Shown here piece after piece: positions 2,962 through 33,865 of a DNA stretch of 40,617 bases. A program made the translations under genes and the position numbers. Source of the stretch: Candidatus Brennerbacteria bacterium. GTDB lineage: Bacteria > Patescibacteriota > Minisyncoccia > UBA6257 > JACPKE01. The notes under the pieces were generated by a model. It searched no databases, was not told where the DNA came from, and worked only from the letters and a program-made list of their open reading frames with translations. Within the stretch, counting starts at the first letter, position 1; the number at the start of each line of letters is the position of its first letter. The DNA lies in NCBI GenBank assembly GCA_016187205.1, contig JACPKE010000023.1, positions 1-40,617 on the forward strand. The letters are read 5' to 3'.

Positions 2962-3048
2962 GGAGGGTTGGCAGAGCGGTCTAATGCGCTGGTTTCGAAA
3001 ACCAGTTGGAGCGAAAGTTCCTCGCAGGTTCAAATCCTGCACCCTCCG
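2962..3048 (+). tRNA. tRNA-Ser(CGA) with long variable arm, no encoded CCA
   Basis: GGAGGGT TG GCAG AGCGGTCTAA TGC G CTGGT TTCGAAA ACCAG [long variable arm] GCAGG TTCAAAT CCTGC ACCCTCC G. Confidence 0.9.
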
Positions 3049-3137
3049 CAGATATAAAATTTTGCAATTATACATTACTATCCTATACTCAAATAAGTTT
3101 TTTGTTAATAAAATTTATTTTTAAGAAAAGGAGAGAA

Positions 3138-5029: not shown

Positions 5030-5791
5030 TCAAATTCTCCAGCTTGAAGTCCCTAAAATCAAAACCAATAAAATAATAAAAACTGTTCCGCGGCTTAAAA
5101 ATAAAGTTCTTGTCAGCTTGCCCTGAAAATAATAATCCAGGAAATCGCGCATTAAAAAAACCAAAAGCGTTAAAAGGGCCGCGCTGTTAAAAAAGCTTAA
5201 AGGCAGAAGCGCAATTGCCCATAAAAATTCCACTGCGGCCAGACCAAGAACCAAAGCCACTGTTTTTTCCCGCTTTGGAAATATTCCCGCTAAAACGGTA
5301 ATCGCTTCGGAAAAAAGCATAAAAATCGCGGCTGACTCCAAAAAATATTTCATTAAAAAATAAGCGGACTTATCGGAAGCAAAAAATAAAACAGCGGTAA
5401 TGAAAAACAGCGCCGTATTTAAATTCCTGTAAACCCTGCCGCGGTCTTGAAAAATCAAATCTCCCAACCCGAAAAGCCAATAAGCCAAAACAACCAAAAA
5501 TAGCCAAACAACGCCAAAAACTAATGGCGTTAAAACGTATTCGGATTGGCTGATAAGATAAGAGCTCAACCAAAAAATAATGGTTGATTTTAAAAATAAT
5601 TTTTTTTCCGGCTGGCGGCTGTAAACAAAAATAAACGCGGCAAAAAAAACAACCGCAGCTGTTAAAGGAGAAAAACTGAAAAAATAGACCAGCCAGAAAG
5701 AAACGGCGAAAATTAAAACCTTAGACGCCGATTTCAACAGTCTGCTGGCCCGCCATTTTTCCGGAAATTGAAATTTTAACTTTCTGACCAT
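5030..5791 (-). CDS. polytopic membrane protein, unknown function (start uncertain)
   Basis: 253-aa ORF with several hydrophobic helices. The annotated ATG overlaps the clpB 3' end by 71 nt; an internal TTG near 5742 is an alternative start. Confidence 0.6.
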
Positions 5792-8363
5792 CTTTAATCT
5801 GCCCTTTAATTATTTTATCGGCTAAATTATCCAGAATGACTTTTTGAATAAGCCGTTTAATCGGTCTGGCGCCATACTCCACGCTAAAACCGTTAACGGC
5901 GATGTATTTTTTTACTTCCGGATTTATTTTGACCTTAATCTGGCGCAAAGCAAGTTTTTTTTCAATTTCGGCAAACTGAATATCAGCTATCTCTTCAACG
6001 TCAACCGGCCGCAAAGAATTAAAAATAAGGGTTTCATCCAAACGGTTTAAAAATTCCGGCTTGAAGGTTTGGCGCAAAGATTCCATAATTTTCGCGCGAA
6101 AATTATCTTCCTTGCCCTTCAGCCCGTCATCCGATTCCGATGAAAAACCCAGATTGGACATCTCGCGAAAATAACCGCTACCGACATTTGAAGTCATAAT
6201 AATAATCGTATTTTTAAAATTAACTGTCTTGCCCTTGCTGTCGGTCAAACGGCCGTTATCCAAAATCTGAAGCAAAAGATTAAAAACTTCCGGATGCGCC
6301 TTTTCTATTTCATCAAACAAAATCAAGCTGTACGGCCGGTGGCGAACCGCGTCAGTCAAACGGCCGCCTTCCTCATAACCGACATAACCAGGCGGAGCTC
6401 CGATTAGACGGGCGGTTGAATGACGTTCCATATATTCCGACATATCAATGCGAAGCAAAGATTTTTCGTCATTAAACATAAATTCCGAGAGCGCCCGCGC
6501 CAATTCAGTCTTGCCGACGCCGGTAGACCCTAAAAACATAAAAGAAGCAATTGGTCTTGATTCATCGCCAAGTCCGGCGCGGCTCCGGCGCAAAGCCCTG
6601 GCTACAGCTTCAATAGCTTCCTTTTGACCAACAACTCTTTTAGATAAAGTTTCTTCAATGCGATTCAGCTTATTAATTTCCGATTCCAACATTCTGGTTA
6701 CCGGAATACCTGTCCAGCGCGAAACCACTTCGGCAATATCTTCCTCGTCAACATATTCCTTGATAAATTTGTCGTGCCGGTTATTCTTGGAAAAATATTT
6801 TTTTTCAAAAGATTCAAATTCCTTTTCGGCGGCCGGCAGTTCACCGTAAAGAATCTGCGCCACTTTTTCAAGATTGCCGTCTCTTTCGGCAACTTCCGCG
6901 ATCCGACGCAAATCTTCGGTCCGGCGCCGCAAAGTATTAAGATTTTCAAAAGCGATCTTTTCCGCATGCCAGCGCGCTGACAAAAGATCGTTCGCGCTTT
7001 TAAATCCAACAAGTTCTTTTTCTATTTCTTTAAGACGGGATTTGGCAACTTTGCTGTTTTCTTTTGACAAGGCTGATTTTTCTATTTCAAGACGGGTAAT
7101 TTCGCGGCGTTTGACATCAAGTTCTTTTGGAAGGCTGTCGCTGTCAAGCCTGCGGCTGGCCGCGGCTTCATCAATAAGGTCAACTGCTTTATCGGGCAAA
7201 AAACGGTCACTGATATACCTGGCGGAAAGATTAACCGCCGCCACAATCGCCTCGTCGCTTACCTTTACGCCATGATGGGTTTCATATTTTTCCTTAAGGC
7301 CGCGCAAAATAGCGATGCTGTCTTCTATAGCCGGCTCATCAACATTAATCGGCTGCAACCGGCGTTCAAGCGCCGGGTCTTTTTCAATATGGCGCTGATA
7401 TTCTTTAATCGTAGTGGCGCCGATGGCATGTAATTCTCCCCTGGCAAGAGACGGCTTTAAAAGATTGGATGCGTCAACAGCGCCTTCGGCTGCGCCAGCC
7501 CCGACAATCATATGAATTTCATCTATAAAAAGTATCATCCTGCCGCTGGCGTTTTTAATTTCTTTCAGAAACGCTTTTAAGCGGTCTTCAAATTCGCCGC
7601 GGAATTTTGTTCCGGCAATCAAAGAACCAAGGTCAAGCATAATAATTTCCTTATTTTTAAGAGGTTCCGGCACTTCCCCGCTGATAATCCTTTGCGCCAG
7701 GCCTTCAACAATGGCTGTCTTGCCAACGCCCGGCTCGCCCACCAAAACCGGATTATTTTTGGTTCTGCGGCTCAAAACCTGAATAACCCTCCGCAATTCT
7801 TCCTCGCGGCCGATAACCGGATCAAGTTTTCCTTCCCGCGCCTGTTCGGTCAAATTAATCGCGTACTTGTCCAAAACCTGAAACTTAGATTCCGGCATTT
7901 CATCGGTAATTCTTGCGGAGCCGCGTAACTGGGATAAAATCCGCATCACAATTTCCCGACGCACCCCGAAATTATTCAAAATAGTCTGGGCCGAAGAAGG
8001 CACATCAAATAAAGCCATCAACAAATGCTCGCAAGAAACAAACTCATCTTTTTGCTGAAGAGCCACTTTAGCGGCCTGGTCCAAAATTTTCATCAGTTCC
8101 TGCGACAAATAAAGCTGCCCGACCGTTGAGGTGGAAAATAATTTCGGAAGGCGGGCAAGTTCCTGTTCCAGTTCCTGTTCCAAAGCCGACAAATTTACAT
8201 TAGCGCGCACCAAAAGAGGCCTTACAAGGGTCTGGTCCTCGCCTATTAAAGCGCGCAAAAGATGCAAAGCTTTTAATTCGCCATGAGATTCTTTGGCGGC
8301 TAAATCCTGCGCGTTCTGCAGAGCTTCCTGAGCTTTAATTGTAAAACGATGAAAGTTAGGCAT
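5721..8363 (-). CDS. clpB: ATP-dependent chaperone ClpB
   Basis: Two AAA+ modules (GEPGVGKT and GSTGVGKT Walker A), a Clp N domain, a long coiled-coil middle domain; 880 aa. Confidence 0.97.
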
Positions 8364-8409: not shown

Positions 8410-10167
8410 TCACCTAAAACCGATTTGCAATTCATACAGCTTTTTATAAACGCCTCCTTCTATTTTCATCAATTCTTCGTGCCTGCCTTTTTCAACGATT
8501 CTGCCCTTATCCAGCACCAAAATCAAATCCGCTTTCCTGACGGTGCTGAAGCGGTGGGCAATTATAAAAGTCGTTCGATTTTTCATTAATTTTTCCAAAG
8601 ATTCGCCGATGAATTCTTCGGATTTCGCGTCCAAGGCCGAAGTCGGTTCGTCTAAAATCAAAATTCTCGGATTTCGCAGAATCGCCCTGGCAATGGCGAT
8701 TCTTTGTTTCTGTCCGGTTGACAGCTTAATCCCCCGCTCGCCGACCAATTGATTATATTTTTTAGGAAAATTTTCAATAAATTCATCGGCATGAGCCAAA
8801 CGCGCCGCTTCCATTACGTCCGCATCGTTTGCGTCAAACTTGCCGTATTTAATGTTATTTTTAACAGTATCGTTAAAAAGCATAATTTCCTGTGGCACAA
8901 TGCTGATAAAGGCCCGCAAAACCCTAAGGTCTAAATTTTTAATATTATGGCCGTCTATTAAAATCCGGCCATGATTCGGCTGAAAATAAAAAGAAATTAA
9001 ATCAATCAAGGTTGTTTTTCCAACCCCTGACTCACCGACTAAAGCAACGGTTTGTCCGGAATTAACCGCAAAAGAAACATCGTCTAAAACTTTATTCTGA
9101 TTTTTAGAGTAGCCGAAACTGACGTTTTGAAATTCAATCTTACCATTAAGCTCCGCCAAAATGACCGCGTTCTTTGGCACATAAATTTCTTCCGGTTTTT
9201 GTAAAATTTCTTCCGCTCTTTCAATTGCCACTAAACCGTTTTGAATAAGACTCCAATTTCTGCCAAGAGTTATAAAAGGAGCGAAAAACATAGCAGCGTA
9301 CCCCTGAAACGCCAGCAACTCGCCGATAGTCAATTCGTTTTTCCATATTAAAAATATGGAAAAAATTAGCAGGGCGAAATTAGTAAAAGTAATCAACAAT
9401 CTCTGGGTTAAATTTAAACTGGATTGCAACGCTACAAAATTTATAAAAAACCGCGCCGCTTTCAAACGAAAATTTTTAAAAAATTTTCTTTTTTCATACT
9501 TTTCCGTAGTGGCTTGTTTAATCGCTTGAACATTCAAAACACTGTCATAAGCGTCGCCATACGCCACCGACCAGCTCCGATGCATTTTTTTTAATAAATC
9601 AGCTATTCTTGGCGCGATTTTTATTAAGACCAAAATATAAATAAAAACCGAAAAAATCAGCATAACGGCTAAAACCGGCTTAATGCTGAAAGTTATAAAA
9701 ATAGCGATAATAATACTTAAAAAATCGGGAAATGAATCAATCAATATACGATTTACAATACTGCTAAGCCAGTCCGAGGCGCGGTCAATTCGTTTTGTAA
9801 TTTCGCCTATTTTATGTTTTTTATGAAAAGACAGCGGAAAAAGAAGAAGTTTTGAAAACCCGTCAATAAGATAATTGCTTTCCAAAGTAACAGCTAAAGT
9901 TTCCCGCCTTACATCTTTAAATTTATCGGCAATATCATGGATACCTCGGCTTAAAATCCACAAACCAAGAAATAAAATAATTGCGCTGCTTACCCTTCCT
10001 AAGATAGCGTCAAAAAGTCGTCCGCCGATATAAGGAACCGCGGCATTGGCGCCTGCCGATACCAAGCTTATGCCTAAAATAATAAATAATTGGCGCCGGT
10101 GCGGTTTTAAATAACGAAAAACAATATTTAATCTTTTCAGATAATTTTCTTTTTTAGCATTAAACAT
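8410..10167 (-). CDS. ABC exporter, fused permease/ATPase (MsbA-like type I exporter)
   Basis: N-terminal 6-TM region, Walker A GESGVGKTT, signature LSTGQKQR, Walker B ILILDEPTSALD. Confidence 0.93.
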   Translation of the reverse strand: MFNAKKENYLKRLNIVFRYLKPHRRQLFIILGISLVSAGANAAVPYIGGRLFDAILGRVSSAIILFLGLWILSRGIHDIADKFKDVRRETLAVTLESNYLIDGFSKLLLFPLSFHKKHKIGEITKRIDRASDWLSSIVNRILIDSFPDFLSIIIAIFITFSIKPVLAVMLIFSVFIYILVLIKIAPRIADLLKKMHRSWSVAYGDAYDSVLNVQAIKQATTEKYEKRKFFKNFRLKAARFFINFVALQSSLNLTQRLLITFTNFALLIFSIFLIWKNELTIGELLAFQGYAAMFFAPFITLGRNWSLIQNGLVAIERAEEILQKPEEIYVPKNAVILAELNGKIEFQNVSFGYSKNQNKVLDDVSFAVNSGQTVALVGESGVGKTTLIDLISFYFQPNHGRILIDGHNIKNLDLRVLRAFISIVPQEIMLFNDTVKNNIKYGKFDANDADVMEAARLAHADEFIENFPKKYNQLVGERGIKLSTGQKQRIAIARAILRNPRILILDEPTSALDAKSEEFIGESLEKLMKNRTTFIIAHRFSTVRKADLILVLDKGRIVEKGRHEELMKIEGGVYKKLYELQIGFR

Positions 10168-10204
10168 TTTTGTATTTTAGCATAAATCGCGATATAATAT
10201 TTAA

Positions 10205-10519
10205 ATGAATATCAAAAGAAAATATCCACCGCAATCGCTACGGGGCATTTTATGGTCTGTTAAAACATCAAATTTAAATTTAGAAAAAGACAAAACATAT
10301 ATTATTCATCAAATATTAAGATACGGCAATCTTAAACAAATTTCTTGGCTCTTTAAAACTTACGGTAAAAATACCATTAGACGGGTTTTTTTGGAGCAAC
10401 CGCAAAAAATTTACAACTTGCCGAATTTTTATTTTATAAAAGATGTCGTTTTAAAAATAAAAAAAAGGACGTTGATTTCCAAATATGATTCAACCTCGCT
10501 TAGAAATATTAGGCCCTGA
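10205..10519 (+). CDS. small partner protein of AbiEii-type NTase (module 1), 104 aa
   Basis: Homologous by eye to ORF 16412..16636 (LW..N..(E/D)..K..YII....(Y/F)GN.K...W....Y....(I/L)R(R/K)V). Its 3' end overlaps the downstream NTase gene. Confidence 0.65.
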   Translation: MNIKRKYPPQSLRGILWSVKTSNLNLEKDKTYIIHQILRYGNLKQISWLFKTYGKNTIRRVFLEQPQKIYNLPNFYFIKDVVLKIKKRTLISKYDSTSLRNIRP

Positions 10520-11123
10520 AAGACTAAAAACTTTTTTAACACTAAAAGAATGGAAGCGGGAAGGCGTTTTGGGGGGCGGCACCGCTATCGCGCTGCAGCT
10601 TAAACATCGTTATTCTTATGATTTTGACATTTTTTTTAAAAAACCGATTGTTAAAAAATATTTTAATAAAGCCAAAACGATTTTTAACATTAAAAAGAAA
10701 TTAGTTGATACAATCGACCAACTTACTTTTTTAACAAAAGACGAAGTAAAAATAACTTTTTTATACTATAATTTTCTCCCGTTACATCCAAAAATTAAAA
10801 CAAATTCTTTGCCGCTTTTTAATTTAAAAGACTTAGCTTCCGATAAAGCGGCGACTATCGGCCGCCGCGGAATGTGGCGTGATTATTTTGACCTTTTTAT
10901 TTTATTAAAAAGCGGCGCAGTTAGTTTTGAAACCTTGTTGGGAGAAACCGCGAAAAGATTCGGCGTTGATTTTTCCGAAAAACTCTTTCTGGAACAACTT
11001 GTTTATTATGGCGATATTGCAAATTTTAATATTGATTTTATTTCCAAAGAATATAAACCGGACGAAATTCAAAGATTTTTTAAGAAAATCACGAGTAATT
11101 ATATAAAAAGTAAAATTTTTTAA
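10485..11123 (+). CDS. nucleotidyltransferase, AbiEii/AbiGii toxin family (module 1)
   Basis: GGGTAIALQLKHRYSYDFDIFF matches the GGTAL..R.S.DLDF NTase motif of DUF1814/AbiEii proteins. Confidence 0.75.
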   Translation: MIQPRLEILGPERLKTFLTLKEWKREGVLGGGTAIALQLKHRYSYDFDIFFKKPIVKKYFNKAKTIFNIKKKLVDTIDQLTFLTKDEVKITFLYYNFLPLHPKIKTNSLPLFNLKDLASDKAATIGRRGMWRDYFDLFILLKSGAVSFETLLGETAKRFGVDFSEKLFLEQLVYYGDIANFNIDFISKEYKPDEIQRFFKKITSNYIKSKIF

Positions 11124-11131
11124 AAAAAAAT

Positions 11132-11156
11132 AGGCGCATTGGATTCAATGCGCCTC
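11132..11156. terminator. bidirectional terminator between convergent genes
   Basis: AGGCGCATTG / CAATGCGCCT 10-bp stem with an A-run before it and T-rich sequence after. Confidence 0.6.
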
Positions 11157-11178
11157 TGTTGAGAAATCTTCCGCTTTT

Positions 11179-11727
11179 TTAAAGTATCTCATCAACTAAA
11201 CCAAGCCGCAGGGCTTCATCGGCAGCAAGATTTCTTTTCTCTTCGCATAGTCTGTTAACTTCTTCAATTTTCATCCCTGAACGTCCAGCTATTATACTCT
11301 CATAATCTTCCTGCGATTTTTGATTTTCCGCTATTCTTTTTTTTGACTCTTCTTCAAATTTTTTCCAATCCATTCCCAAAGTTATCTCAAAATTATGGAA
11401 AAACATTGTGCTATGACGCATCATTTTTCTTCTATGGCATGCCTGCAAAACAAGGATAGCCATAGAATTAGCTTCTTTAAAAACAGTGCCTGTTATCAAC
11501 GATTCTGAATACTTGATAATATCATATAAGTCAAACCCGGCCCCCACATTACCGCCTTTACTGTTGATATATAAAAATATTTCCTGGTTTGGATATTTGG
11601 CATTAAGCCATAAAACCATTTTAGCGATCTTGTCAGCTTGCTGGTCATCAATTCTGCCTTCTAAATAAATTTTTCGCTGTTCCAACAAAACCAACGAAAA
11701 GACTTTTTCTAAATCTTCATCAATCAT
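11179..11727 (-). CDS. ClpP-family protease homologue, orphan and divergent, 182 aa
   Basis: LYINSKGGNVGAG, ANSMA (Ser) and FFHNF (His) align with ClpP LYINSPGG / AASMG / MIHQP. No clpX or clpA is adjacent. Confidence 0.8.
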   Translation of the reverse strand: MIDEDLEKVFSLVLLEQRKIYLEGRIDDQQADKIAKMVLWLNAKYPNQEIFLYINSKGGNVGAGFDLYDIIKYSESLITGTVFKEANSMAILVLQACHRRKMMRHSTMFFHNFEITLGMDWKKFEEESKKRIAENQKSQEDYESIIAGRSGMKIEEVNRLCEEKRNLAADEALRLGLVDEIL

Positions 11728-11980
11728 TGATTCTTCCTCCTTCCATATGTTATTTTTAAATAAACTTAATAAACTAAGTTTTCTTTAACAGAGAATAGCA
11801 TTTTAAATGCTTTTCGTCAATCCCTCACCTTTCATCCCTCACTTTTGGAAAAAGTGAGGGATTCAAAGATTAAAATGAATAATCAAGCCATAAGCAGTGC
11901 GATATTCGTGCCGTAAAACGGCTAATCTTGGAAAGGTGAAGGATCAAGGTCGCTCATAAAATTTAATAAAATAGAAAAAT

Positions 11981-12241
11981 ATGTCTCAAGAAATACCAAA
12001 ACCATTAAATGAAGCGGAAATGGAAAAAAAGAAAATAGAAGAAGAGAAAAGAATTATCAAAGAAGCAGAAAATAGGGAAGGAATTAAAGATGAAGAAGAA
12101 GGAACAGAAAGCGAACTTAATAAAATTATAGAAGAAGAAAGAAAAGGAACTCAAAAAGAAATCACTGTAGACGAACGCACCGGCGAAATGCTAACACCGC
12201 AAGATATCAAAGAAAGAAGAGAAAAAGGATTTGAAAGATAA
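11981..12241 (+). CDS. Lys/Glu-rich hypothetical protein, 86 aa
   Basis: ORF with a highly charged, low-complexity sequence, followed by hairpins. Confidence 0.45.
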   Translation: MSQEIPKPLNEAEMEKKKIEEEKRIIKEAENREGIKDEEEGTESELNKIIEEERKGTQKEITVDERTGEMLTPQDIKERREKGFER

Positions 12242-12418
12242 ATAGTGAAGAGTCCCACCTTTACAGGCGGGACTTCTTATAATTCAAGCTTCGCTTGTCC
12301 AGCACTATGACGCGTCATAGTGCTGGACCTTGCTCTCACCCCCGCCATTACAGACGGGGAACTCCCACGAAGTTAGAAACCGTTTTTACAAATAATTTCT
12401 GAAAAAAAGGTTTCTTCA

Positions 12419-12446
12419 TTGATTTTTTAAGTAACTGATGTAAAAT
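12419..12446 (+). promoter_or_regulatory. sigma70-like promoter (TTGATT, 16-nt spacer, TAAAAT) placing the transcription start at or next to the ATG at 12454
   Basis: Hexamers read directly. Only 7 nt separate the -10 box from the ATG and there is no SD, so the mRNA would be leaderless or nearly so. Confidence 0.4.
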
Positions 12447-12453
12447 ATATTAT

Positions 12454-12681
12454 ATGAACACCACAACAACAAAATCATATGTTGCGTCAACACGCCAATA
12501 TGCTCTTACCGAAGCCCAAGAAGCAGTCATTAAATTAATTACTCTAAAACCATTACTTTCTTCACGAGATGAGGAAACGCTTTCGCTTTTAATCAATAAA
12601 GAACTTATGCAACGGCTCAAAAAAAGCCTAAAAGAAGCAGAAAAAGGGAAAGTAGAACCGCTTAAAAATATCCTTAAATAA
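12454..12681 (+). CDS. putative antitoxin of the adjacent RelE/ParE toxin, 75 aa
   Basis: Small acidic/helical ORF 5 nt upstream of a RelE/ParE-type gene. The assignment rests on position only. Confidence 0.55.
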   Translation: MNTTTTKSYVASTRQYALTEAQEAVIKLITLKPLLSSRDEETLSLLINKELMQRLKKSLKEAEKGKVEPLKNILK

Positions 12682-12686
12682 AAAAG

Positions 12687-12971
12687 ATGTATCGGCGCGT
12701 TATTACTCCTTCGGCAAAGCGCTCGCTTAAAAAACTGCCGTTCTCCGTCCGAAAAACTCTGGTTGATTCAACAAAAATACTTGAGTCCGATCCTTATGCC
12801 GGAGAAAAACTCTCGGGTTCTTTACGTTTTCTTTATTCGTTTCACTTTAAGGTTTCCAATATTCAATATCGGGTTGCGTACACAATAAATCAAAATGATA
12901 AGCTAATTATTATGCATTTCGCTCATACCCGCGAAAATTTCTACGAAAAACTTCATCATCTTTTTAAATAA
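12687..12971 (+). CDS. type II toxin, RelE/ParE family, 94 aa
   Basis: Size and motifs match: YRVAYTINQNDKLIIMHFAHTRENFY resembles the YR..Y.I......I.I..I.HR..Y core of RelE/ParE. Confidence 0.75.
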   Translation: MYRRVITPSAKRSLKKLPFSVRKTLVDSTKILESDPYAGEKLSGSLRFLYSFHFKVSNIQYRVAYTINQNDKLIIMHFAHTRENFYEKLHHLFK

Positions 12972-12984
12972 ACTCCGTCAAAAA

Positions 12985-13010
12985 TAAAAAGCTTGATAAA
13001 TCAAGCTTTT
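12985..13010. terminator. bidirectional rho-independent terminator
   Basis: AAAAAGCTTGAT AAA TCAAGCTTTTT. Confidence 0.7.
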
Positions 13011-13126
13011 TGGATCTCGCGGTCTCGCCGCTCTTTATATTCAACTTGCCATCAAGTTGAAATTTCCGAGCAATCCCCGCTCACGTCGGACCCTTCCGCC
13101 GACGTCTCCGCCCATGTACGGAGAAA

Positions 13127-13309
13127 TTATTTTACATGGCTATTATCAAGAACTGCCTCAATACTTACGCTAACATGATCATAACACCTTAAATGTGTAG
13201 TGAACCGTTCAAGCGCTTCAGCAAGATCAGATCCTTCATAATAAACATTCTGTCCAGGTTGGTATTCAGATCGTGGAAAAGTATGTATGACCAATGTTCT
13301 ATATATCAT
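13127..13309 (-). CDS. hypothetical mini-protein, 60 aa (start moved to the ATG after the SD)
   Basis: AAAGGAGGTG lies 6 nt upstream of the ATG. It is the last gene of the three-gene mini-protein operon. Confidence 0.55.
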   Translation of the reverse strand: MIYRTLVIHTFPRSEYQPGQNVYYEGSDLAEALERFTTHLRCYDHVSVSIEAVLDNSHVK

Positions 13310-13397
13310 TACATTCACCTCCTTTCATTCGGTTAAATGGCTCGACCGCGGTTAATAATCTGAATATTTCCTCGCCGTCGTCGCGAGAAAAAACTCT

Positions 13398-13571
13398 TCA
13401 CAGAACTGTTATCTTATGGCATTTCGGACAAGTTATCCTGATCCGCCCATCGAATAAACTGGGCTGATGTTTATCAGGATTAATCACGCCCTTCCATAAA
13501 GATTTGCAGTATGGGCAATTCGTTGGAATTAGAGCTAACCTTTTAATAACTTGTAGTTTTTGTTTTAACAT
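13398..13571 (-). CDS. zinc-ribbon mini-protein, 57 aa (below ORF-track cutoff)
   Basis: Hand translation gives MLKQKLQVIKRLALIPTNCPYCKSLWKGVINPDKHQPSLFDGRIRITCPKCHKITVL, with two CxxC pairs. The ATG directly abuts the TAA of the upstream ORF, and SD AAGGAGGG lies in the upstream ORF tail. Confidence 0.6.
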   Translation of the reverse strand: MLKQKLQVIKRLALIPTNCPYCKSLWKGVINPDKHQPSLFDGRIRITCPKCHKITVL

Positions 13572-13766
13572 TTATCCCTCCTTTCTTGAAAAAATGTCTA
13601 TATAATGTTCGCTATACTCTAAAACGCCATTTGTTCGCGAATGTAAATTACCATCGCAAACCTCGCAGGCGAACCATACCTTTTCACACTTATCACAAAT
13701 AAATTCTTCGGGTTCGCCAAATCCGCCAGATAAACGAAGCAATGCGCCGCCGCAATTACATTTCAT
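13572..13766 (-). CDS. Cys-rich zinc-ribbon mini-protein, 64 aa (ORF track gives 70 aa from 13784)
   Basis: MKCNCGG...CDKCEKVWFACEVCDG contains 7 Cys including CxC and two CxxC. SD AGGGAGAAAG favours the second Met. Confidence 0.6.
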   Translation of the reverse strand: MKCNCGGALLRLSGGFGEPEEFICDKCEKVWFACEVCDGNLHSRTNGVLEYSEHYIDIFSRKEG

Positions 13767-14271
13767 ATACTTTCTCCCTATCATTTAATTGTTTTTACAA
13801 AGAACTTTTAGGAAGCTAAATTTATTTAAAAATTCTCTCCCTTTCAGAAACTTTCAATTATTTGAAAATCTCTGAAAGAAAGGTGATTGATTTTTATCAC
13901 CTTAAAAATAAATGCAGCCAGTGAATCGCAAGATAAAAACTCTTATCTCAGACGCCGAGCATCACTGTATTGTTTTGGTTAAGACTAAGAAAGGTGAAGA
14001 GCGCCTTTCTTATAACAATTCTCCCAAAACTAGAGTCACCATTCATCACAAAATTGGAATAGAGCTCTCCTTATTCCAAAACTTGTGAGTGGCTCTGACA
14101 TGGCGTCGCTGCATTTTCTTATAAAAGAACTCGCGGGAAATTTTAGAAAACTTATTTCTAATTATTTCCCTTCCAAAGATCGCTTTATCTTTTTCTCAAG
14201 CGATCTTTGGAAGAGAGGCAAGCGATGTTTTGCTTGCCTGACTACATCTTTCACCTCCTTTTATTATTGCT

Positions 14272-14556
14272 TCATTTTTTTTCTTCAAAAATCCGACAAA
14301 ATTCTTCACCTGCCTTTATTAACTCTTCAACTTCTTCCTCCCTGGTATTACAACCCAAAGAGGGATTCCCTAGCTGATCATTAAGTTGAGAAAAAATCAC
14401 ATGAGTAATAGGAATAAAATCATATCGCCGATTTTCTATTATTATTCTGTTTTCTTTCTTCAGCTCTTTTAACTTAGTTAAAAGAGCTTTTGTAAAAGAT
14501 AAAGAAAATCCATTAACAACATCCTGTTTTAACACTAACTGTTGCTTTTGTTTCAT
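14272..14556 (-). CDS. hypothetical protein, 94 aa
   Basis: ORF with SD AAGGAGGG upstream and its own consensus promoter. I recognise no family. Confidence 0.55.
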   Translation of the reverse strand: MKQKQQLVLKQDVVNGFSLSFTKALLTKLKELKKENRIIIENRRYDFIPITHVIFSQLNDQLGNPSLGCNTREEEVEELIKAGEEFCRIFEEKK

Positions 14557-14599
14557 TTTATCCCTCCTTATATTATTAATAATTTAAGTTTCTGCTGTC

Positions 14600-14627
14600 A
14601 TTATACTCCTTTACAGAATTTTGTCAA
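14600..14627 (-). promoter_or_regulatory. consensus sigma70 promoter (TTGACA, 16-nt spacer, TATAAT) for ORF 14272..14556
   Basis: Both hexamers are perfect on the minus strand. Confidence 0.65.
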
Positions 14628-14741
14628 GGGGGTATAACATATTAAATCTAAAAAGCTGATTTTACCGCATTATATATAGATAAATTAGTATAATTTGAGT
14701 TGTTAATTTAAAATAACATAAAAAATGTTGATTTAAAAAAT

Positions 14742-14765
14742 GAGGGCTGTCAAATGACAGCCCTC
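14742..14765 (-). terminator. rho-independent terminator (minus strand), preceded by a second hairpin at 14775-14801
   Basis: GAGGGCTGTCA / TGACAGCCCTC 11-bp stem followed by ATTTTTT on the minus strand. Confidence 0.7.
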
Positions 14766-14798
14766 TTGGGGTTTCCCGAAAAAAATACTGCTTTTTTC

Positions 14799-14970
14799 GG
14801 GAAATTACACAATTATACTTTGCTTTCAATCAATTTCTAAAAATCACCACCCATTCATATTTCCTCCTTTCTTTTTATGCGTTTATGGGGAAATTATCAT
14901 ACTTCTTTCAATCAATTTTTTACAAATCACCACCCATTCATATTTCCTCCTTTCTTTTTATGCGTTTATG
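14799..14970 (-). repeat. tandem direct repeat, 2 units (89 and 83 nt) with an identical 45-nt core
   Basis: The core ATCACCACCCATTCATATTTCCTCCTTTCTTTTTATGCGTTTATG occurs at 14843-14887 and 14926-14970. Confidence 0.9.
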
Positions 14971-15104
14971 CAGATGACGCCACTTTTTGCCAGTAACCCA
15001 ACGATTCAGTATAAATATCGTTGGGCGCCGCTAAAGTGAATTACCATCCGCCCATCGCATCCTCCCTAAAAAGTTAATAAATTTTCAATCCCAAAACTTG
15101 TTAT

Positions 15105-15132
15105 ATTATAGCAATATATAAAAATAAGTCAA
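15105..15132 (-). promoter_or_regulatory. near-consensus sigma70 promoter (TTGACT, 16-nt spacer, TATAAT) driving the mini-ORF RNA
   Basis: Hexamers read on the minus strand, immediately after the TrmB-like stop codon. Confidence 0.6.
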
Positions 15133-15133
15133 G

Positions 15134-15745
15134 CTATTTTTCTTTCTTATATTTTTCTGCCGCTTCCCAGGCCAAATCAAATATTATGTTTGTCATCCTG
15201 GCAATACCTTCGTCTTCTATTAAAACTCCGGACGGTTCGTTTAAAAAAGAAACAAACCATACTTTATTGCCGTAAATACTCATATCTCCTTTAAATCCTA
15301 AAGCCACAAATCCTTTTATTTCCGAACATTCTGTTTTTAAAAAATCGTTCATCATTGTCCGCAACCCTTCTTTTCCTTGTAAAAATCTGACTTTTAATTT
15401 CGGCCCGGCTATTTTAAACAAACTTTCAAGTTCAGGCGTAATTTTTTTTAAAACTTCAGATTTTTCATCCAGGTCTTTTTCCAATTCCTTTTTTCGCGCA
15501 TTAAAAAACCTGACGATATTTACCGGATTTTCAGCCGCAAAAAATGTTTTTTTGCCTTTTTCCACGCTGCTTATCAAGCCATGCTTCATCAAAGACTCAA
15601 TTATAATATACACGGTTACCCGCTTTACTCCTGATTTTTCTGCCAACTGTTGAATCGTCGCTTCTCCCAAATCTAAAGCCGCTAAATAAACTTGAGATTC
15701 TTTTTCCGAAAATCCAATTTTTTCTAAATCTTGATGGTTAATCAT
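15134..15745 (-). CDS. TrmB-family winged-helix transcriptional regulator
   Basis: The N-terminal LEKIGFSEKESQVYLAALDLGEATIQQLAEKSGVKRVTVYIIIESLMKHGLI is typical of TrmB-type HTH. Confidence 0.75.
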   Translation of the reverse strand: MINHQDLEKIGFSEKESQVYLAALDLGEATIQQLAEKSGVKRVTVYIIIESLMKHGLISSVEKGKKTFFAAENPVNIVRFFNARKKELEKDLDEKSEVLKKITPELESLFKIAGPKLKVRFLQGKEGLRTMMNDFLKTECSEIKGFVALGFKGDMSIYGNKVWFVSFLNEPSGVLIEDEGIARMTNIIFDLAWEAAEKYKKEK

Positions 15746-15764
15746 AAAAAGTTAACAAAAAATT

Positions 15765-16463
15765 TTATTTAATTAGTTTTTTGGCAATCAAAGTTATTTC
15801 TTTCCTAAAAAAAGATTTAATCTTTTTCCAATCAGCGTCAAAATATATTTCCGGCTCCGGATCGCTTTCCGCGTCTTCAAAATACACCAAAGATTTTAAT
15901 ATATGGTGATAATTATGAGCTATTGCCGGATATTGCGCTTTGAGCCGTTTAATAATATTTTCCAGGGATTCAATATTATTCGCGCACCAATAAAGGTCAA
16001 AAAAATCCCTTTTCCGGCCGCGTTGAGAAATCGCTGTAATTTTCATTACGCCGATATCAATCGGGTTAAGCACGCGAATTGTTCCATAAATCGCCGGTTT
16101 TTGTTTAGGAATAAAAAACGGGTAAGCGATAAAACTGGCTTTGGCTCCGAAAAATTCGCCATAAATTGTATTTTTTCTGCTAAATGTCTCCTTCCAATTA
16201 GGATTATTAGAATAACGCTCCAACAGTTCTTTTGTATTAAAATTTTTAAGCTCGGTAAAAAAATCTAAATCAACCGACCGCCGATGCCCAACCCGCAAGG
16301 CTAAAGCAGTTCCACCGGCCAAATACCATTTTGATTTACCAAGCCATGTTTCAGAAGATAAAAAATCAAGCGCTTTTTTTGTTTTGCGCGGCAAGATATC
16401 ATAATGCCAGATTATTTTTTCGCCATTAATGTCCATAATGATTTTGTTTCCGGCCTTAAACAT
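15765..16463 (-). CDS. nucleotidyltransferase, AbiEii/AbiGii toxin family (module 2)
   Basis: WYLAGGTALALRVGHRRSVDLDFFT motif, plus the C-terminal KRDFFDLYW block typical of the family. Confidence 0.85.
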   Translation of the reverse strand: MFKAGNKIIMDINGEKIIWHYDILPRKTKKALDFLSSETWLGKSKWYLAGGTALALRVGHRRSVDLDFFTELKNFNTKELLERYSNNPNWKETFSRKNTIYGEFFGAKASFIAYPFFIPKQKPAIYGTIRVLNPIDIGVMKITAISQRGRKRDFFDLYWCANNIESLENIIKRLKAQYPAIAHNYHHILKSLVYFEDAESDPEPEIYFDADWKKIKSFFRKEITLIAKKLIK

Positions 16464-16636
16464 CTTGATTTAGAAATTACTTTCCTTAATAATCTATTGC
16501 TGTAAAAATTTAAAACCCAGCGCGCTTCTTTATCGTTACCGAAATCAGCCACCCGCTCAATGATATATTGAGCGTTTTTTTTAGGGTCTATTTTGTTTGG
16601 ATTTGTATCCCAAAATAACGCTTGTCTAAACTTCAT
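16412..16636 (-). CDS. small partner protein of AbiEii-type NTase (module 2), 74 aa
   Basis: Homologous to ORF 10205..10519 and overlaps the 5' end of the NTase ORF. Confidence 0.65.
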   Translation of the reverse strand: MKFRQALFWDTNPNKIDPKKNAQYIIERVADFGNDKEARWVLNFYSNRLLRKVISKSRCLRPETKSLWTLMAKK

Positions 16637-16648
16637 CCCTTTATTATA

Positions 16649-18004
16649 TCACATTTCCGGCCGTTCTTCAAGCACGGTTTTTAAATTCAAAACCTTGTCG
16701 CCGCGCTGGATTTTTAAATTCAAAACATCGCCAACGCTGTATTTTTGTACGAACGAAGCAAGGGTATGATCCTGGTCAATTTGCTGGCCGTTAACTTCCA
16801 AAATAATATCCTCGGCCTGGATTCCGGCTTTAGCTGCCGGAGAATTCGGTAAAACTCCAGGCCCCTGGTCATTGCCGCGGACAAGCGCGCCATACTTAAC
16901 CGGCAATTTCTGTTTTTCGGAAACTTCCGGCGAAAGATGAATATAACGCACGCCTAAATAAGCGGAAATAATTCGGCCGCTTTTTTGAACGGAATTAATG
17001 GCTCTTTTTGCCTGATTGATTGGAATGGCAAAACCGATATTCTCGGCTCCGGATGCAATCGCGGTATTTATGCCTATCACTTCCCCGCGCAAATTAAGAA
17101 TCGGACCTCCGGAATTGCCCGGATTTATGGCCGCGTCTGTCTGAATTACCCCTTCAATTGTTTCAGACATTCCGCCGCCGGAAGCGGTTACTGTGCGTGC
17201 CAAACCGGAAATCACTCCCACTGAAACAGTATTACGGAATTCTCCCAATGCATTACCTATAGCAATGGCGGTTTGCCCAAGCTTAATCGTATCGGAATTT
17301 CCCAAAGCGACAACCGGCAAATTGCTGGTTTTGATTTTTAAAACAGCTAAATCAAGAGACGGATCCCGCGCTAAAACTTTCGCGTCATATTTCTTGCCGT
17401 CATTGGTTAAAACAGTATATTCAGCCGCTTCATCAGCCACTACATGTTTATTAGTTACAATTAAACCGTCCGCTGAAACTATAAAACCGCTGCCGCCGCC
17501 GACTTCCTGATGTTTTGTTTTTCCTTTAGAGCAAGGCTGATTAAATTGCTGAAAAGGCCCAAAATCAAAAAACTGGTTAAATTCCGGCGGCAAATCGCCG
17601 AAAGGATTAAAAGGGCACTGCTCTATAACCGGCAAATCCTTGGAAATTATAATAGAAACAACCGCCGGCGACGCCTTTTCAACGGCTCCGATAACCGCCT
17701 GCTCATAATCAAGCGCGGGTTTGTAAAGAGACGTCGGTTCTTCCAGTTTTACTTCATTATTCTGACCAAAATCTTCATTTAATTTTCCGGAACCAAACTT
17801 CGGAAGAAAACGATTTAAAAAATCCTGAAATAAATTAGCTTGTCCCGCTAACAGCGGGGCCTGCCTAGCGGTAGGCATAGCCTGATTTTCATTTTTAAAA
17901 TAATTTTGCGCTAATGATGGCAGATGAAAACCGGAAATTCTGGCAACTACAAAAATAGATGCCAACGCGATTATTATTAAAAAAACAATTATTTTTTTAT
18001 CCAT
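16649..18004 (-). CDS. HtrA/DegP-family serine protease with N-terminal membrane anchor and PDZ
   Basis: N-terminal helix IIVFLIIIALASIFVV, triad contexts TNKHVV / LDLAVLK / GNSGGP, C-terminal PDZ. Confidence 0.92.
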   Translation of the reverse strand: MDKKIIVFLIIIALASIFVVARISGFHLPSLAQNYFKNENQAMPTARQAPLLAGQANLFQDFLNRFLPKFGSGKLNEDFGQNNEVKLEEPTSLYKPALDYEQAVIGAVEKASPAVVSIIISKDLPVIEQCPFNPFGDLPPEFNQFFDFGPFQQFNQPCSKGKTKHQEVGGGSGFIVSADGLIVTNKHVVADEAAEYTVLTNDGKKYDAKVLARDPSLDLAVLKIKTSNLPVVALGNSDTIKLGQTAIAIGNALGEFRNTVSVGVISGLARTVTASGGGMSETIEGVIQTDAAINPGNSGGPILNLRGEVIGINTAIASGAENIGFAIPINQAKRAINSVQKSGRIISAYLGVRYIHLSPEVSEKQKLPVKYGALVRGNDQGPGVLPNSPAAKAGIQAEDIILEVNGQQIDQDHTLASFVQKYSVGDVLNLKIQRGDKVLNLKTVLEERPEM

Positions 18005-19256
18005 AAATAATATTTTTAATCCTCTTTAAAGCTTCGTCAAGTTCTGATTTTTCAGTAAATTTTCCAAAAGTAAACCGCAGACTCTGCCTGATTCTTTTTT
18101 CATTACAGCCGATTGCCGCCAGAACACTGGAAAGTTTGACTGAACGCGCCGAACAGGCCGAACCGGACGAAACCGCAATTCCGGTCAGATCAAGCTTTAC
18201 CAATAGATCCTCCGCCGAATATCCGGGCAGGCAAATATTTAAATTATTAGGTAAGCGATTTGTGAAACTTCCATTAACAGCGGCTCGCGGAAAAATTTTC
18301 TTAAATCCATGCCAAAAATAATCGCGAAGATTTTTTATTCTTTTACTTTCCTGTTCCCTGTTTTCAACAGCCAACTCAACGGCTTTGGCAAAACCAACTA
18401 TTAAAGGAACGTTTTCCGTGCCGGAACGAAAACCAAATTCCTGGCCCCCGCCGGTGAGAATAGAATTTAGAATACAGAATTTAGAATTTAGAGAACGAAC
18501 ATATAACGCGCCAACGCCTTTAGGGCCGTAAATTTTATGGCCCGACAACGTCATTAAATCAACGCCAAGCTTGTTAACATCGCAGTCCAGATACTGAAAT
18601 GACTGCGCAACGTCGCTATGTAAAATGGGAAATGCGACATGAGCAATGCGACTATTTTCTACATGTCGCTTGTTGCTTGTCGCTCGAAAATTTCCGATTA
18701 TTTCGGCGATTTCCGCAATCGGCTGAATTGTTCCGATTTCATTATTAGCGTGCATTATAGACACTAAAACAGTTTGTTCGTTTAAAGCCGCTTTTAATTT
18801 TTTCAAATCAACAAAACCAGCGCGGCTTACCGGCAAATAAATTACTTCAATACCGCTACTTTCCAAATCCCGCGCGGTTGCTAAAATAGATTCATGCTCA
18901 ATTGAAGAAACAATAATACGGGGATTTAAAAGCTTCCTATATTCTAAATTCTGTATTCTAAATTCTCTAACTGCGCCGCGCAGCGCCAGGTTATTAGCTT
19001 CCGTCGCCGAGCCGGTAAAAATTATTTCCCGGAAATCAGCACCAATTGCCGCGGCAATTTTTTCCCGCGACTCATCCACCCCTGCCATTGCTTCCTGGCC
19101 AAAAAAATGCAGAGAGCCCGGATTGCCGAATTTACGGCCAAAATACGGCCTCATGGCTTTCTCAACTTCAGGATCAACCGGTGTAGTAGCCGCATAATCC
19201 AAGTAAATTTTATCAGTTTTTTTATTAAAATTTCCTGCCATCAAAAAATTCTGCAA
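17997..19256 (-). CDS. cysteine desulfurase (NifS/IscS-like class V aminotransferase)
   Basis: PLP-lysine context SGHKIYGPKGVGALYVR, catalytic Cys loop SSGSACS, GGGQE.G.RSGTEN block. Confidence 0.9.
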   Translation of the reverse strand: MQNFLMAGNFNKKTDKIYLDYAATTPVDPEVEKAMRPYFGRKFGNPGSLHFFGQEAMAGVDESREKIAAAIGADFREIIFTGSATEANNLALRGAVREFRIQNLEYRKLLNPRIIVSSIEHESILATARDLESSGIEVIYLPVSRAGFVDLKKLKAALNEQTVLVSIMHANNEIGTIQPIAEIAEIIGNFRATSNKRHVENSRIAHVAFPILHSDVAQSFQYLDCDVNKLGVDLMTLSGHKIYGPKGVGALYVRSLNSKFCILNSILTGGGQEFGFRSGTENVPLIVGFAKAVELAVENREQESKRIKNLRDYFWHGFKKIFPRAAVNGSFTNRLPNNLNICLPGYSAEDLLVKLDLTGIAVSSGSACSARSVKLSSVLAAIGCNEKRIRQSLRFTFGKFTEKSELDEALKRIKNIIYG

Positions 19257-20798: not shown

Positions 20799-21266
20799 AA
20801 AACTTCGCTAATATACGAATGTAGCGCTGATATACGAATTAATTACTGTTGATTATTCTTCTATAACGCACTCCGTCTTTAAGAAAATAGATGAGAATAG
20901 CCAATTTTAGATTAACATTTTTCAAATATGAAACAACTTGATTAATATGAATATAGCCTAATTTCGGCATTATCTTCATTTCAACAACGATTGTATTTTC
21001 TACAACAAAATCTAAAAACACTCGTCCTATATTTTTATTATTAAAAGTTATAGCTACAAATTTTTCTTTTTCAAATTTTATCCCAAGGTCATTTAATGTT
21101 AAAGCATAAGCTTTTTGATAAATATTCTCTTGATATCCCCAACCCAACTTATTATATACATCAAAAGCCGCGCCAATTAATTTAAAACTAAGTTCCGGAT
21201 AAAAAAGATCTGTCTTTTTAACTGACGCATTAGTATATTCGCGCTTGATTCGCATATTCGTGAAGT
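20799..21266 (-). mobile_element. TIR-bounded cassette carrying a GxxExxY-family (PD-(D/E)XK-like) ORF
   Basis: The flanks contain imperfect inverted ATTCGYATATTMG-type repeats, and both flanks recur fused together at 4952-5029 without the ORF body. Confidence 0.65.
20839..21255 (-). CDS. GxxExxY protein (PD-(D/E)XK nuclease-like small protein)
   Basis: 138 aa with GYQENIY (G-x-x-E-x-x-Y) and the downstream LDFVVENTIVVEMK block typical of this family. Confidence 0.8.
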   Translation of the reverse strand: MRIKREYTNASVKKTDLFYPELSFKLIGAAFDVYNKLGWGYQENIYQKAYALTLNDLGIKFEKEKFVAITFNNKNIGRVFLDFVVENTIVVEMKIMPKLGYIHINQVVSYLKNVNLKLAILIYFLKDGVRYRRIINSN

Positions 21267-33490: not shown

Positions 33491-33865
33491 TTAATTATTT
33501 TCAATAATTACCGATTTTTTTACTTTAATATCACTTAAAATTTTAACTATCTGCTTTTTAAAGACCGGTAAGTCGTCTTGAATGGTTTTCCATAATATTT
33601 CTTCATCAATGCCAAAATATTCATGAATTACTTTATTCCTCATGCTTTTAATTTCGTTCCAGGCCACATTTGAATTTTTGGCTTTTATTCCTTCGGGAAT
33701 ATTTTTTACCGCTTCACCAATAACTGAAAGATTCCTAATAACCGCATCAATTATTTGTTCATTTTTGGAAAATTTTTCAAAATTAACGCCACGCGTATAT
33801 TTCTCTATTTTTCTGATAGAATCTTTAATATCTTCCAAATAAAGTTTTATTCCTCTTTTAGACAT
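33491..33865 (-). CDS. hepT: HepT-type (DUF86) RNase toxin
   Basis: R-x4-H-x-Y motif as RNKVIHEY; 124 aa; overlaps the upstream MNT gene by 8 nt. Confidence 0.85.
   Translation of the reverse strand: MSKRGIKLYLEDIKDSIRKIEKYTRGVNFEKFSKNEQIIDAVIRNLSVIGEAVKNIPEGIKAKNSNVAWNEIKSMRNKVIHEYFGIDEEILWKTIQDDLPVFKKQIVKILSDIKVKKSVIIENN

Follow-up and report, generated by a model that had tools for sequence, protein, structure and literature searches.

The DUF1814-family toxins MenT1, MenT3 and AbiEii nucleotidylate the 3′-CCA ends of tRNA, and structurally unrelated antitoxins silence them via induced auto-phosphorylation of the toxin (PMC11375011; bioRxiv 10.64898/2026.01.19.700257). In the case of MenT3, toxicity requires D80, K189 and D211, and the serine of the S-x-D-x-D motif is the phosphorylated residue (PMC7450476). 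MenT1 extends the 3′ acceptor ends of tRNA and its antitoxin triggers auto-phosphorylation on a Ser/Thr by the DxD motif, according to two reports (PMC10435456, PMC11375011). JHP933 is encoded in the plasticity zone of Helicobacter pylori; a small gene lies upstream of its own and overlaps it in a "classic TA configuration" (TA, toxin-antitoxin; PMC7450476), and another report places JHP933 in a variable genomic region (PMC4125220). Here we describe two putative toxins of this family, each with a small DUF6922 partner, in a 6.4-kb region (positions 10205-16636) of a metagenome-assembled contig from Candidatus Brennerbacteria (Patescibacteria, or Candidate Phyla Radiation, CPR). The whole contig, 40,617 nt in length, is referred to as the window. 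The region is probably a plastic hotspot that holds three independent toxin-antitoxin-type modules along with lineage-specific small genes and RNAs, not one integrated system, and the two nucleotidyltransferase (NTase) pairs would be MenT/AbiEii-like toxins neutralised by DUF6922.

A sequence-only reading had presented the region as an accessory island bracketed by two inward-facing paralogous modules, and as a candidate for an undescribed defence or addiction-type locus. The features that it listed were all confirmed by checks of open reading frames (ORFs), domains, promoters and hairpins, from the two modules, the divergent ClpP homologue and the RelE/ParE pair with an apparently leaderless antitoxin to the 94-aa orphan with a consensus promoter, the promoter-to-terminator RNA with three 4-codon ORFs, the hairpin arrays and the TrmB-type regulator. 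Domain searches of the region also agreed with it in finding no integrase or transposase.

Each module consists of a small protein matching PF21956 (DUF6922) and a short NTase matching PF08843 (DUF1814/AbiEii), as had been proposed, and the two genes overlap by 35 nt in module 1 and by 52 nt in module 2 (Table 1). Both NTases score above the PF08843 gathering threshold and match multiple PADLOC AbiEii models. No AbiEi/COG5340 partner was found by Pfam or PADLOC anywhere in the region, and PADLOC sees the AbiEii half only. NTase1 and NTase2 are 27% identical (E=1e-11) and have in common the motif GGTA..AL...R.S.D.D.F, which is real in the alignment; the small partners DUF6922_1 and DUF6922_2 are likewise homologous, with 24% identity (E=3e-8). 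Because they are only 24-27% identical, the modules are ancient paralogues, and a recent duplication, which was also considered, is ruled out by these values. The closest representative of DUF6922_1 is 56% identical to it (P0253).

In an alignment of six NTases that includes both window copies, residues G50, G51, T52, S63, D65, D67, K141, R148, R152, D153 and D156 of NTase2 are invariant, and NTase1 retains GGTA, S-x-D-x-D, K and R..RD.FD. These pol-beta motifs (GGT, S-x-D-x-D) and DUF1814 motifs (K141, R..RD.FD) align with the motifs of JHP933. The phospho-acceptor was defined as the Ser/Thr that stands two positions ahead of DxD (MenT3 S78, MenT4 S67, AbiEii T65). A Ser occupies this position in NTase2 (R-S63-V-D65-L-D67) and NTase1 (Y-S-Y-D-F-D), and is invariant in the six NTases. 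Judged from the alignment, both NTases keep the catalytic residues required in MenT3 as well as its phosphorylated serine.

By homology to MenT1, MenT3 and AbiEii, free NTase would add nucleotides to tRNA 3′-CCA ends and thereby block translation. DUF6922 would bind the NTase and neutralise it through sequestration, through induced auto-phosphorylation of the conserved Ser (S63 of NTase2), or through a combination of the two. The CPR DUF6922 proteins would then represent the bare toxin-binding domain, and the fusion to an Xre helix-turn-helix (HTH) domain found in Bacteroidota would represent the classic antitoxin layout of a DNA-binding and a toxin-binding domain, which supplies autoregulation. 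The ClpP-like gene, the Lys/Glu-rich (KE) ORF, TrmB, the mini-ORF RNA and the small ORFs would be neighbours by descent or local turnover, and not components of the NTase modules. A role in phage defence or addiction is conceivable.

Table 1. Features of the region and of its flanks, in positions of the window.
Feature	Position	Strand	Remarks
ClpB	5721-8363	-	left flank
ABC exporter	8410-10167	-	left flank
DUF6922_1, 104 aa, small helical, putative antitoxin of module 1	10205-10519	+	PF21956, E=3.5e-14
NTase1, 212 aa, short DUF1814/AbiEii-family, putative toxin of module 1	10485-11123	+	PF08843, E=2.9e-10; PADLOC AbiEii, E=7e-9
GC-rich hairpin between convergent NTase1 and ClpP-like genes	11132-11155	.	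probably bidirectional terminator
Divergent ClpP-like peptidase, 182 aa	11179-11727	-	PF00574, E=2e-29, 103 bits
Lys/Glu-rich (KE) ORF, 86 aa	11981-12241	+	no family match
Three consecutive GC-rich hairpins downstream of KE ORF	12250-12362	.	includes perfect 32-nt palindrome, 12297-12328
Putative antitoxin ORF of ParE-like toxin, 75 aa	12454-12681	+	no Pfam match; promoter-like site 12419-12446
ParE/RelE-superfamily toxin, 94 aa	12687-12971	+	PF15781, E=1e-16; PF05016, E=8e-7
Hairpin array (about five) separating the convergent ParE and small-ORF genes	12986-13124	.	13020-13085 conserved in L095
Small ORF, 63 aa as listed	13127-13318	-	start more likely ATG 13309 (60 aa); no homologues found
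5′ untranslated region (5′UTR) and Shine-Dalgarno block	13314-13393	-	87% identical to L095, there before non-homologous 148-aa ORF
Small ORF, 57 aa, Cys pairs typical of zinc ribbon	13398-13571	-	no homologues in related loci
Small ORF, 70 aa, Cys pairs typical of zinc ribbon	13572-13784	-	no homologues in related loci
Conserved hairpin block	14166-14240	-	core GGCAAGCAAAACATCGCTTGCC invariant in window, L094 and two L095 copies
Orphan ORF, 94 aa	14272-14556	-	promoter TTGACA-16-TATAAT at 14600-14627, 12/12 consensus
Structured RNA, about 365 nt	14733-15098	-	promoter 15105-15132 (11/12 consensus); strong terminator 14742-14765
TrmB-family winged-helix regulator, 203 aa	15134-15745	-	PF01978, E=2e-15
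NTase2, 232 aa, short DUF1814/AbiEii-family, putative toxin of module 2	15765-16463	-	PF08843, E=1.3e-19
DUF6922_2, 74 aa, four-helix (predicted), putative antitoxin of module 2	16412-16636	-	PF21956, E=3.8e-18
HtrA	16649-18004	-	right flank
NifS-like aminotransferase	17997-19256	-	right flank

The same pairing is found well beyond this region. In all 12 loci examined, an AbiEii gene lies immediately downstream of DUF6922 (one AbiEii is truncated). These loci are the two window modules, those of L081, L094, L095, L086, L087 (truncated), L089 and L091, and those on Microscilla pSD15, a Phocaeicola vulgatus plasmid and a Bacteroides fragilis plasmid; L-numbers designate the loci compared, and the relatives of the contig derive from groundwater and similar metagenomes. 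DUF6922 is followed by an overlapping AbiEii, one of them a truncated remnant, in the four independent contexts sampled in CPR (L086, L087, L089, L091), and the neighbours are unrelated housekeeping genes encoding UvrD, PilM, pyruvate:ferredoxin oxidoreductase, UvrA, RNase Y and type II secretion proteins. ClpP-like, ParE and mini-protein neighbours are absent around the DUF6922-AbiEii pairs elsewhere, and TrmB is absent outside this lineage. In L087 (6001-6611), the intact DUF6922 precedes a 136-aa remnant in which only the C-terminal half of AbiEii is recognisable, an apparent decaying copy of the module.

On the three Bacteroidota plasmids, the partner encoded directly upstream of AbiEii is an Xre-HTH+DUF6922 protein of 159-174 aa, and its gene overlaps AbiEii on both Bacteroidaceae plasmids. 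The NTases are about 198-232 aa in length in CPR and on two of the three Bacteroidota plasmids, and 307 aa on the B. fragilis plasmid. Plasmid tblastn searches returned 11 records for NTase2 and three for DUF6922_2, all of them among those 11. The partner ORF of an Aquifex plasmid was considered as a DUF6922 protein and is not convincing (hhalign probability 11%); the partners of the Azospirillum and Aliarcobacter NTases gave no DUF6922 match. DUF6922_2 has 592 close homologues, the best 120 of which are 73-86% identical, 73-95 aa long and single-domain, with Falkowbacteria, Peregrinibacteria and Magasanikbacteria as named hosts. In an exhaustive profile search the family comprised 1886 clusters at 50% identity, mostly of 56-150 aa. 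Rare DUF6922-AbiEii fusion proteins (P0215, P0251) and HTH-DUF6922 fusions (P0254, P0268, L098, L101) are also found. IMG/VR held no match for the NTase subfamily, and the INPHARED phage collection yielded two distant unannotated contigs only. In the searchable literature, no paper mentioning DUF6922 was found.

DUF6922_2 and NTase2 are 82% and 70% identical to the L094 copies, and 81% and 70-72% identical to the copies of other CPR genomes (one annotated as Falkowbacteria, one as "Patescibacteria group"). The syntenic copy in L081 is only 53% and 57-58% identical, though the housekeeping genes of L081 are the most similar (HtrA 90%, ABC exporter 84%; ClpB is 93% identical in the sister scaffold L003). 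Because module 2 is so dissimilar to its syntenic counterpart and so similar to the copies of other CPR genomes, these identities indicate allele replacement or horizontal exchange at a fixed site. The combination of DUF6922 and a short AbiEii is an autonomous, mobile two-gene unit that occurs across several CPR phyla.

The synteny comparison called for by the sequence-only reading bore out that the region varies among relatives, but it does not vary as one unit. L081, a contig from Hainich groundwater, is the closest relative and has the order HtrA - DUF6922 - NTase - KE ORF - ClpP-like - ABC. Since this order is the same in the window, module 2, the KE ORF and the ClpP-like gene form the positional backbone of the region. 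Compared with L081, the window carries additional DNA at two distinct points, 10168-11178 and 12245-15758. The former holds module 1, which sits in a 100-nt spacer between the terminator of the ClpP-like gene and the promoter of the ABC exporter and is found in the window genome only among the relatives compared, being absent from L081 itself. The latter is a 3.5-kb block between the KE ORF and NTase2. In L094 and L095, DUF6922-AbiEii-TrmB precedes the same RNA as in the window; the gene directly upstream in L094 is HtrA. The TrmB block, common to L094 and L095, is for that reason probably ancestral and was lost in L081, where the pair stands without TrmB. In a more distant relative (L082), unrelated genes lie between HtrA and ClpB. 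An apparent absence of the ClpP-like gene from L003 was traced to N-gaps only; L081, from the same site, carries the gene.

Across L081, L094 and L095, presence and absence split the block into at least three independently varying pieces. Insertion of the island in one piece was considered and set aside, given that the indel map shows several. The region is a plastic spacer, in which pieces have been gained, lost and replaced several times independently, and not a bracketed unit; part of its content (module 2, the KE ORF, the ClpP-like gene, TrmB and the RNA) is vertically inherited. Of the earlier proposal of a defence or addiction locus, the richness in toxin-antitoxin genes stands, as does the absence of DUF6922 from the searchable literature, whereas a single multi-gene system does not agree with pieces that vary independently.

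That all 6.4 kb form a single undescribed defence or addiction system of many genes, or a mobile island delimited by the inward-facing NTase modules, in which protease, regulator, mini-proteins and RNAs cooperate, is very improbable. Composition speaks in part for such an island: the GC content is 0.345 compared with 0.41-0.43 in the flanks, and the tetranucleotide deviation has its window maximum at 12-15 kb (z about 2.7), although almost the same deviation is seen in two housekeeping stretches, ClpB and a large gene at 30-33 kb. An unusually low coding density, numerous hairpins (12 terminator-like hairpins versus 5.7 +/- 2.4 in shuffles) and the variability among relatives point in the same direction, and three pairs in 6.4 kb stand out because toxin-antitoxin and defence genes are reportedly scarce in CPR genomes (PMC12455944, PMC8080830). 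These observations have to be set against the independent variation of the pieces and against the deep divergence of the two modules. The components do not co-occur in the eight other DUF6922-AbiEii contexts or in distant TrmB contexts, and the small ORFs lack homologues even where the intergenic DNA is common. The bracketing itself proved to be geometry without a supporting signal: the region has no integrase, no long direct or inverted repeats at its edges and no adjoining tRNA, the nearest being at 2962-3049. A 21-nt inverted repeat around NTase2 (15721-15741 / 16456-16476) was also considered and is probably due to chance, because it lies within coding sequence and is one of 94 such pairs. 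A decayed prophage or integrated element, with the ClpP-like protein as prohead protease, the KE ORF as scaffold remnant and small zinc-ribbon proteins, a regulator and toxin-antitoxin genes as the remainder, is equally improbable. In its favour, the ClpP-like protein matches phage head-maturation proteases (PHROG 94, E=3.5e-24; NCBIfam Clp_rel_HeadMat, E=8e-16) with scores equal to those for cellular ClpP and lacks the catalytic Asp, and small orphan ORFs are plentiful; yet no capsid, terminase, portal, integrase or attachment repeat was found in the region, IMG/VR is blank for the NTase subfamily, the conserved hairpin and the RNA motif described below, and the ClpP-like gene and the KE ORF keep their positions between species.

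Several points weigh against the identification of the DUF6922-NTase pairs as toxin-antitoxin modules. Toxicity and neutralisation are argued from sequence and context, and DUF1814 proteins are not all toxins (PMC7450476). The sole solved structure reached by the NTase sequence profile was JHP933, with a weak match (E=0.14). The AlphaFold2 model of NTase2, built from a two-sequence alignment, is poor, with a predicted local distance difference test (pLDDT) score of 54; the top Foldseek match of this low-confidence model, which by contrast favours the identification, is MenT1 (8an4/8an5; probability 0.99, E=0.011, TM 0.41-0.48), and CCA-adding enzymes come next. No similarity of DUF6922 to AbiEi, MenA1 or MenA3 could be detected in sequence or fold. 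The DUF6922_2 model is compact, with four helices and a pLDDT of 80, and obtained no Foldseek match with E<=0.001; the Protein Data Bank (PDB) gave no sequence match for DUF6922 with a single sequence or a profile. The neighbourhood sample is small and, within CPR, comes from one close DUF6922 subfamily. The DUF6922-AbiEii fusion proteins could have arisen artificially, by frameshift or misassembly where the two genes overlap. It is also possible, if unlikely, that in the Brennerbacteria lineage module 2 is a three-gene unit of DUF6922, NTase and TrmB, in which TrmB regulates in trans and replaces the fused HTH, and which the RNA may join. The order and a gap of 18-19 nt between NTase and TrmB (19 nt in the window) are kept in the window, L094 and L095 despite different NTase alleles (82/70% vs 51/57%), the CPR DUF6922 proteins lack the HTH of their Bacteroidota homologues, and the RNA lies directly downstream of TrmB in the same three genomes. 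These three genomes are related, however, and the shared order may be inherited synteny. The pair occurs without TrmB in L081, L086, L089 and L091, and the more distant CPR TrmB homologues (L096, L097) have no NTase pair and are followed by long non-coding stretches and small-ORF arrays. An internal deletion of 56 aa in the window TrmB further speaks against an essential role. Somewhat less probable still is a cellular enzyme, that is, an enzyme of two subunits that modifies RNA or nucleotides (for example in tRNA repair or modification, or by acting on a small molecule), with DUF6922 as specificity or regulatory subunit. Besides the existence of non-toxic DUF1814 proteins and the indirect case for NTase toxicity, the strong conservation of DUF6922 among its best 120 of 592 homologues across CPR phyla and the natural NTase fusions, unusual for a toxin with a labile antitoxin, would fit such an enzyme. 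A patchy and discordant distribution, two divergent copies in a small genome and plasmid-borne copies are, in contrast, typical of selfish or defence genes, the overlapping small upstream gene and the Xre-HTH fusions are hallmark antitoxin features, and a truncated NTase beside an intact DUF6922, as in L087, is how toxin-antitoxin loci are expected to decay. On balance, independent toxin-antitoxin-type modules in a plastic hotspot remain the explanation that we favour.

The third such module lies in the 3.5-kb block and is a standard ParE/RelE-type type II toxin-antitoxin pair. The putative antitoxin ORF stops 5 nt before the start of the ParE-like toxin. It begins 7-8 nt after the -10 hexamer and is not preceded by a Shine-Dalgarno sequence, which makes a leaderless mRNA plausible. 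The only relative of this pair among the genomes compared is in L094, at another position, where the ORF in the antitoxin position is 37% identical.

The ClpP-like protein is a distant member of its family. Its NCBIfam ClpP score is 97 against a cut-off of 249, below equivalog level, and it is 27% identical to canonical CPR ClpP; a k-mer homologue search found two distant relatives only. The catalytic triad is reduced to Ser and His, with Lys at the Asp position, and the L081 orthologue (55% identical) has the same Ser/His/Lys. The KE ORF also has a homologue in L081, of 61 aa and 63% identical over 41 aa, in the same position. In the case of TrmB, the 56-aa in-frame stretch missing from the window protein (between ...FVAL and FKGDMSIYG...) is present in an otherwise 100% identical 259-aa variant from another sample (P0125) and in all homologues (240-265 aa); its loss reflects either a strain-level deletion or an assembly collapse.

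The small ORFs between the ParE pair and the RNA have no homologues even in genomes that share the surrounding intergenic DNA. A three-gene mini-protein operon with two zinc ribbons had been suggested here, and the ribbons stand: the 70-aa and 57-aa ORFs abut and both contain CxxC...CxxC. The strict operon does not, since the third ORF (13127-13318) has its own 5′UTR, and the arrangement is a pair plus one.

The structured RNA is kept directly downstream of TrmB in L094 (6905-7165) and L095 (1832-2085), and in the three genomes it folds far more stably than shuffled sequences (z = -4.3, -3.9 and -5.5). In the window it carries three mini-ORFs of four codons, each with a strong Shine-Dalgarno sequence: MGGW* at 15041-15055 and MNGW* at 14927-14941 and 14844-14858, the last two within an 83-nt tandem duplication. 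Two or three such M-x-G-W mini-ORFs are found per RNA. MGGW* occurs in all three genomes (with synonymous GGC/GGT), and the others are MNGW* (twice), MKGWI* and MPGWV*. A scan of the window and of seven related loci found no occurrence of the motif outside these RNAs, and it had no IMG/VR match. Compensatory changes between genomes are seen in the first hairpin and in the stem of the terminator. Mini-ORF 1, hairpins and a terminator are common to the three RNAs, but around mini-ORF 1 the window RNA pairs differently from those of L094 and L095. The RNA has no Rfam match. At the gathering threshold Rfam matched three tRNAs only, all outside the region, and permissive thresholds gave nothing credible (a SprD match reached 31 bits vs a cut-off of 100).

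Beyond the RNA, further downstream, four collinear intergenic blocks (13020-13085, 13314-13393, 14166-14240 and 14580-14674) are 76-88% identical among the window, L095 (2271-4203) and L094 (7357-7943). The last of these, a promoter and 5′UTR, is kept in L094 and L095 before an unrelated 70-aa ORF. The ORFs behind the conserved blocks are non-homologous (94 aa vs 70 aa; 60 aa vs 148 aa), and the pattern looks like cassette replacement behind conserved regulatory DNA. Within the third block, the hairpin GGCAAGCAAAACATCGCTTGCCTC (14215-14238, minus strand) is invariant including its loop and recurs in L094 (7916-7939) and twice in L095 (2836-2859 and 4170-4193); neither the remainder of the window nor IMG/VR contains it. 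Just upstream of this hairpin, after the 94-aa ORF, an AGGAGG Shine-Dalgarno sequence is followed by a start-stop ATG TAG (14242-14259, minus strand; ATG TAG at 14242-14247). Elsewhere in the region, the non-coding stretch around the palindrome at 12297-12328 is far more GC-rich than its surroundings. The RNA and the conserved blocks may be analogous to leader-peptide or minigene RNAs and to cassette exchange at conserved joints.

The most far-reaching proposal joins these elements to the NTase pairs. DUF6922 might be an unrecognised antitoxin domain that induces auto-phosphorylation of minimal DUF1814 tRNA-nucleotidyltransferases and has spread horizontally through CPR, and in the Brennerbacteria lineage it might be wired to TrmB and to a structured RNA that carries translated M-x-G-W mini-ORFs and stands at the head of swappable small-protein cassettes, each preceded by a conserved promoter and 5′UTR block. 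In this full form the proposal is speculative, and we consider it a shade less probable than the cellular enzyme discussed above.

Outside the region, a toxin-antitoxin pair of the MNT-HepT type is found at 33491-34148 (minus strand; MNT, NTP_transf_2, 96 aa; HepT, 124 aa) in a low-GC pocket amid housekeeping genes. This pair stands alone. Toxin-antitoxin pairs or selfish modules are scattered singly across this genome. A PD-(D/E)XK nuclease-family gene (20839-21255, minus strand; PF13366, E=5e-29) is a single-gene insertion that splits two RNase H-like genes; the same two genes are adjacent in L094 and L003. A second HtrA-like protease (3896-4951, plus strand) is about 50% identical to the HtrA of the right flank and 93% identical to its counterpart in L003.

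The "island" itself is ordinary genome plasticity, though dense for CPR. Its new content would be an undescribed antitoxin-type partner family for minimal DUF1814 toxins, as judged from sequence comparison. The DUF1814 (MenT/AbiEii) toxins are an active topic, in which unrelated antitoxins appear to converge on induced auto-phosphorylation. DUF6922 would add a very small partner family, bare at 74 aa in CPR and Xre-fused on Bacteroidota plasmids, and because it is so small and occurs in both forms it could serve as a compact test system for the generality of the mechanism. The ultra-small CPR genomes, often called poor in toxin-antitoxin and defence genes, would also be seen to swap modules across phyla and to stack several per hotspot.

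Among described systems, MenAT1 (Rv0078B-Rv0078A) of Mycobacterium tuberculosis resembles the window modules in combining a short DUF1814 NTase (MenT1, about 195 aa) with a small all-helical antitoxin unrelated to AbiEi. MenT1 is the closest fold found for the low-confidence NTase2 model, and S-x-D-x-D is present in both window NTases. The partners differ: DUF6922 matches MenA1 in neither sequence nor fold and is predicted to be a compact four-helix protein, whereas MenA1 contacts MenT1 via a single extended helix (PMC11375011). The hosts also differ, being CPR bacteria and Bacteroidota in the case of DUF6922. AbiE (AbiEi-AbiEii) and MenAT3/4 (COG5340-DUF1814) share with the modules a PF08843 toxin with four conserved motifs and an overlapping antitoxin gene upstream, and the Bacteroidota partner has, by prediction, the same layout of an N-terminal DNA-binding and a C-terminal neutralising domain. 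Unlike AbiE and MenAT3/4, the modules have no AbiEi/COG5340 protein, their NTases are shorter, and the CPR partner is 74-104 aa without an HTH. To jhp0932-JHP933 the resemblance is in the overlapping small upstream gene and in the location in a variable region, and JHP933 (232 aa) is the one solved structure that the NTase profile reached, although with a weak match. The ParE pair resembles ParDE/RelBE type II systems in the small antitoxin ORF directly ahead of a toxin matching PF15781 and PF05016; it differs in that its antitoxin matches no Pfam family and its mRNA may be leaderless. As a whole, the region differs from known toxin-antitoxin and defence hotspots in having no integrase, transposase or tRNA anchor, in its partly vertical content, in its very small size and in a host phylum regarded as gene-poor in such systems. 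It is like them in its conserved flanks (NifS-HtrA and ABC-ClpB), between which the content varies, alleles are replaced and the GC content is lower.

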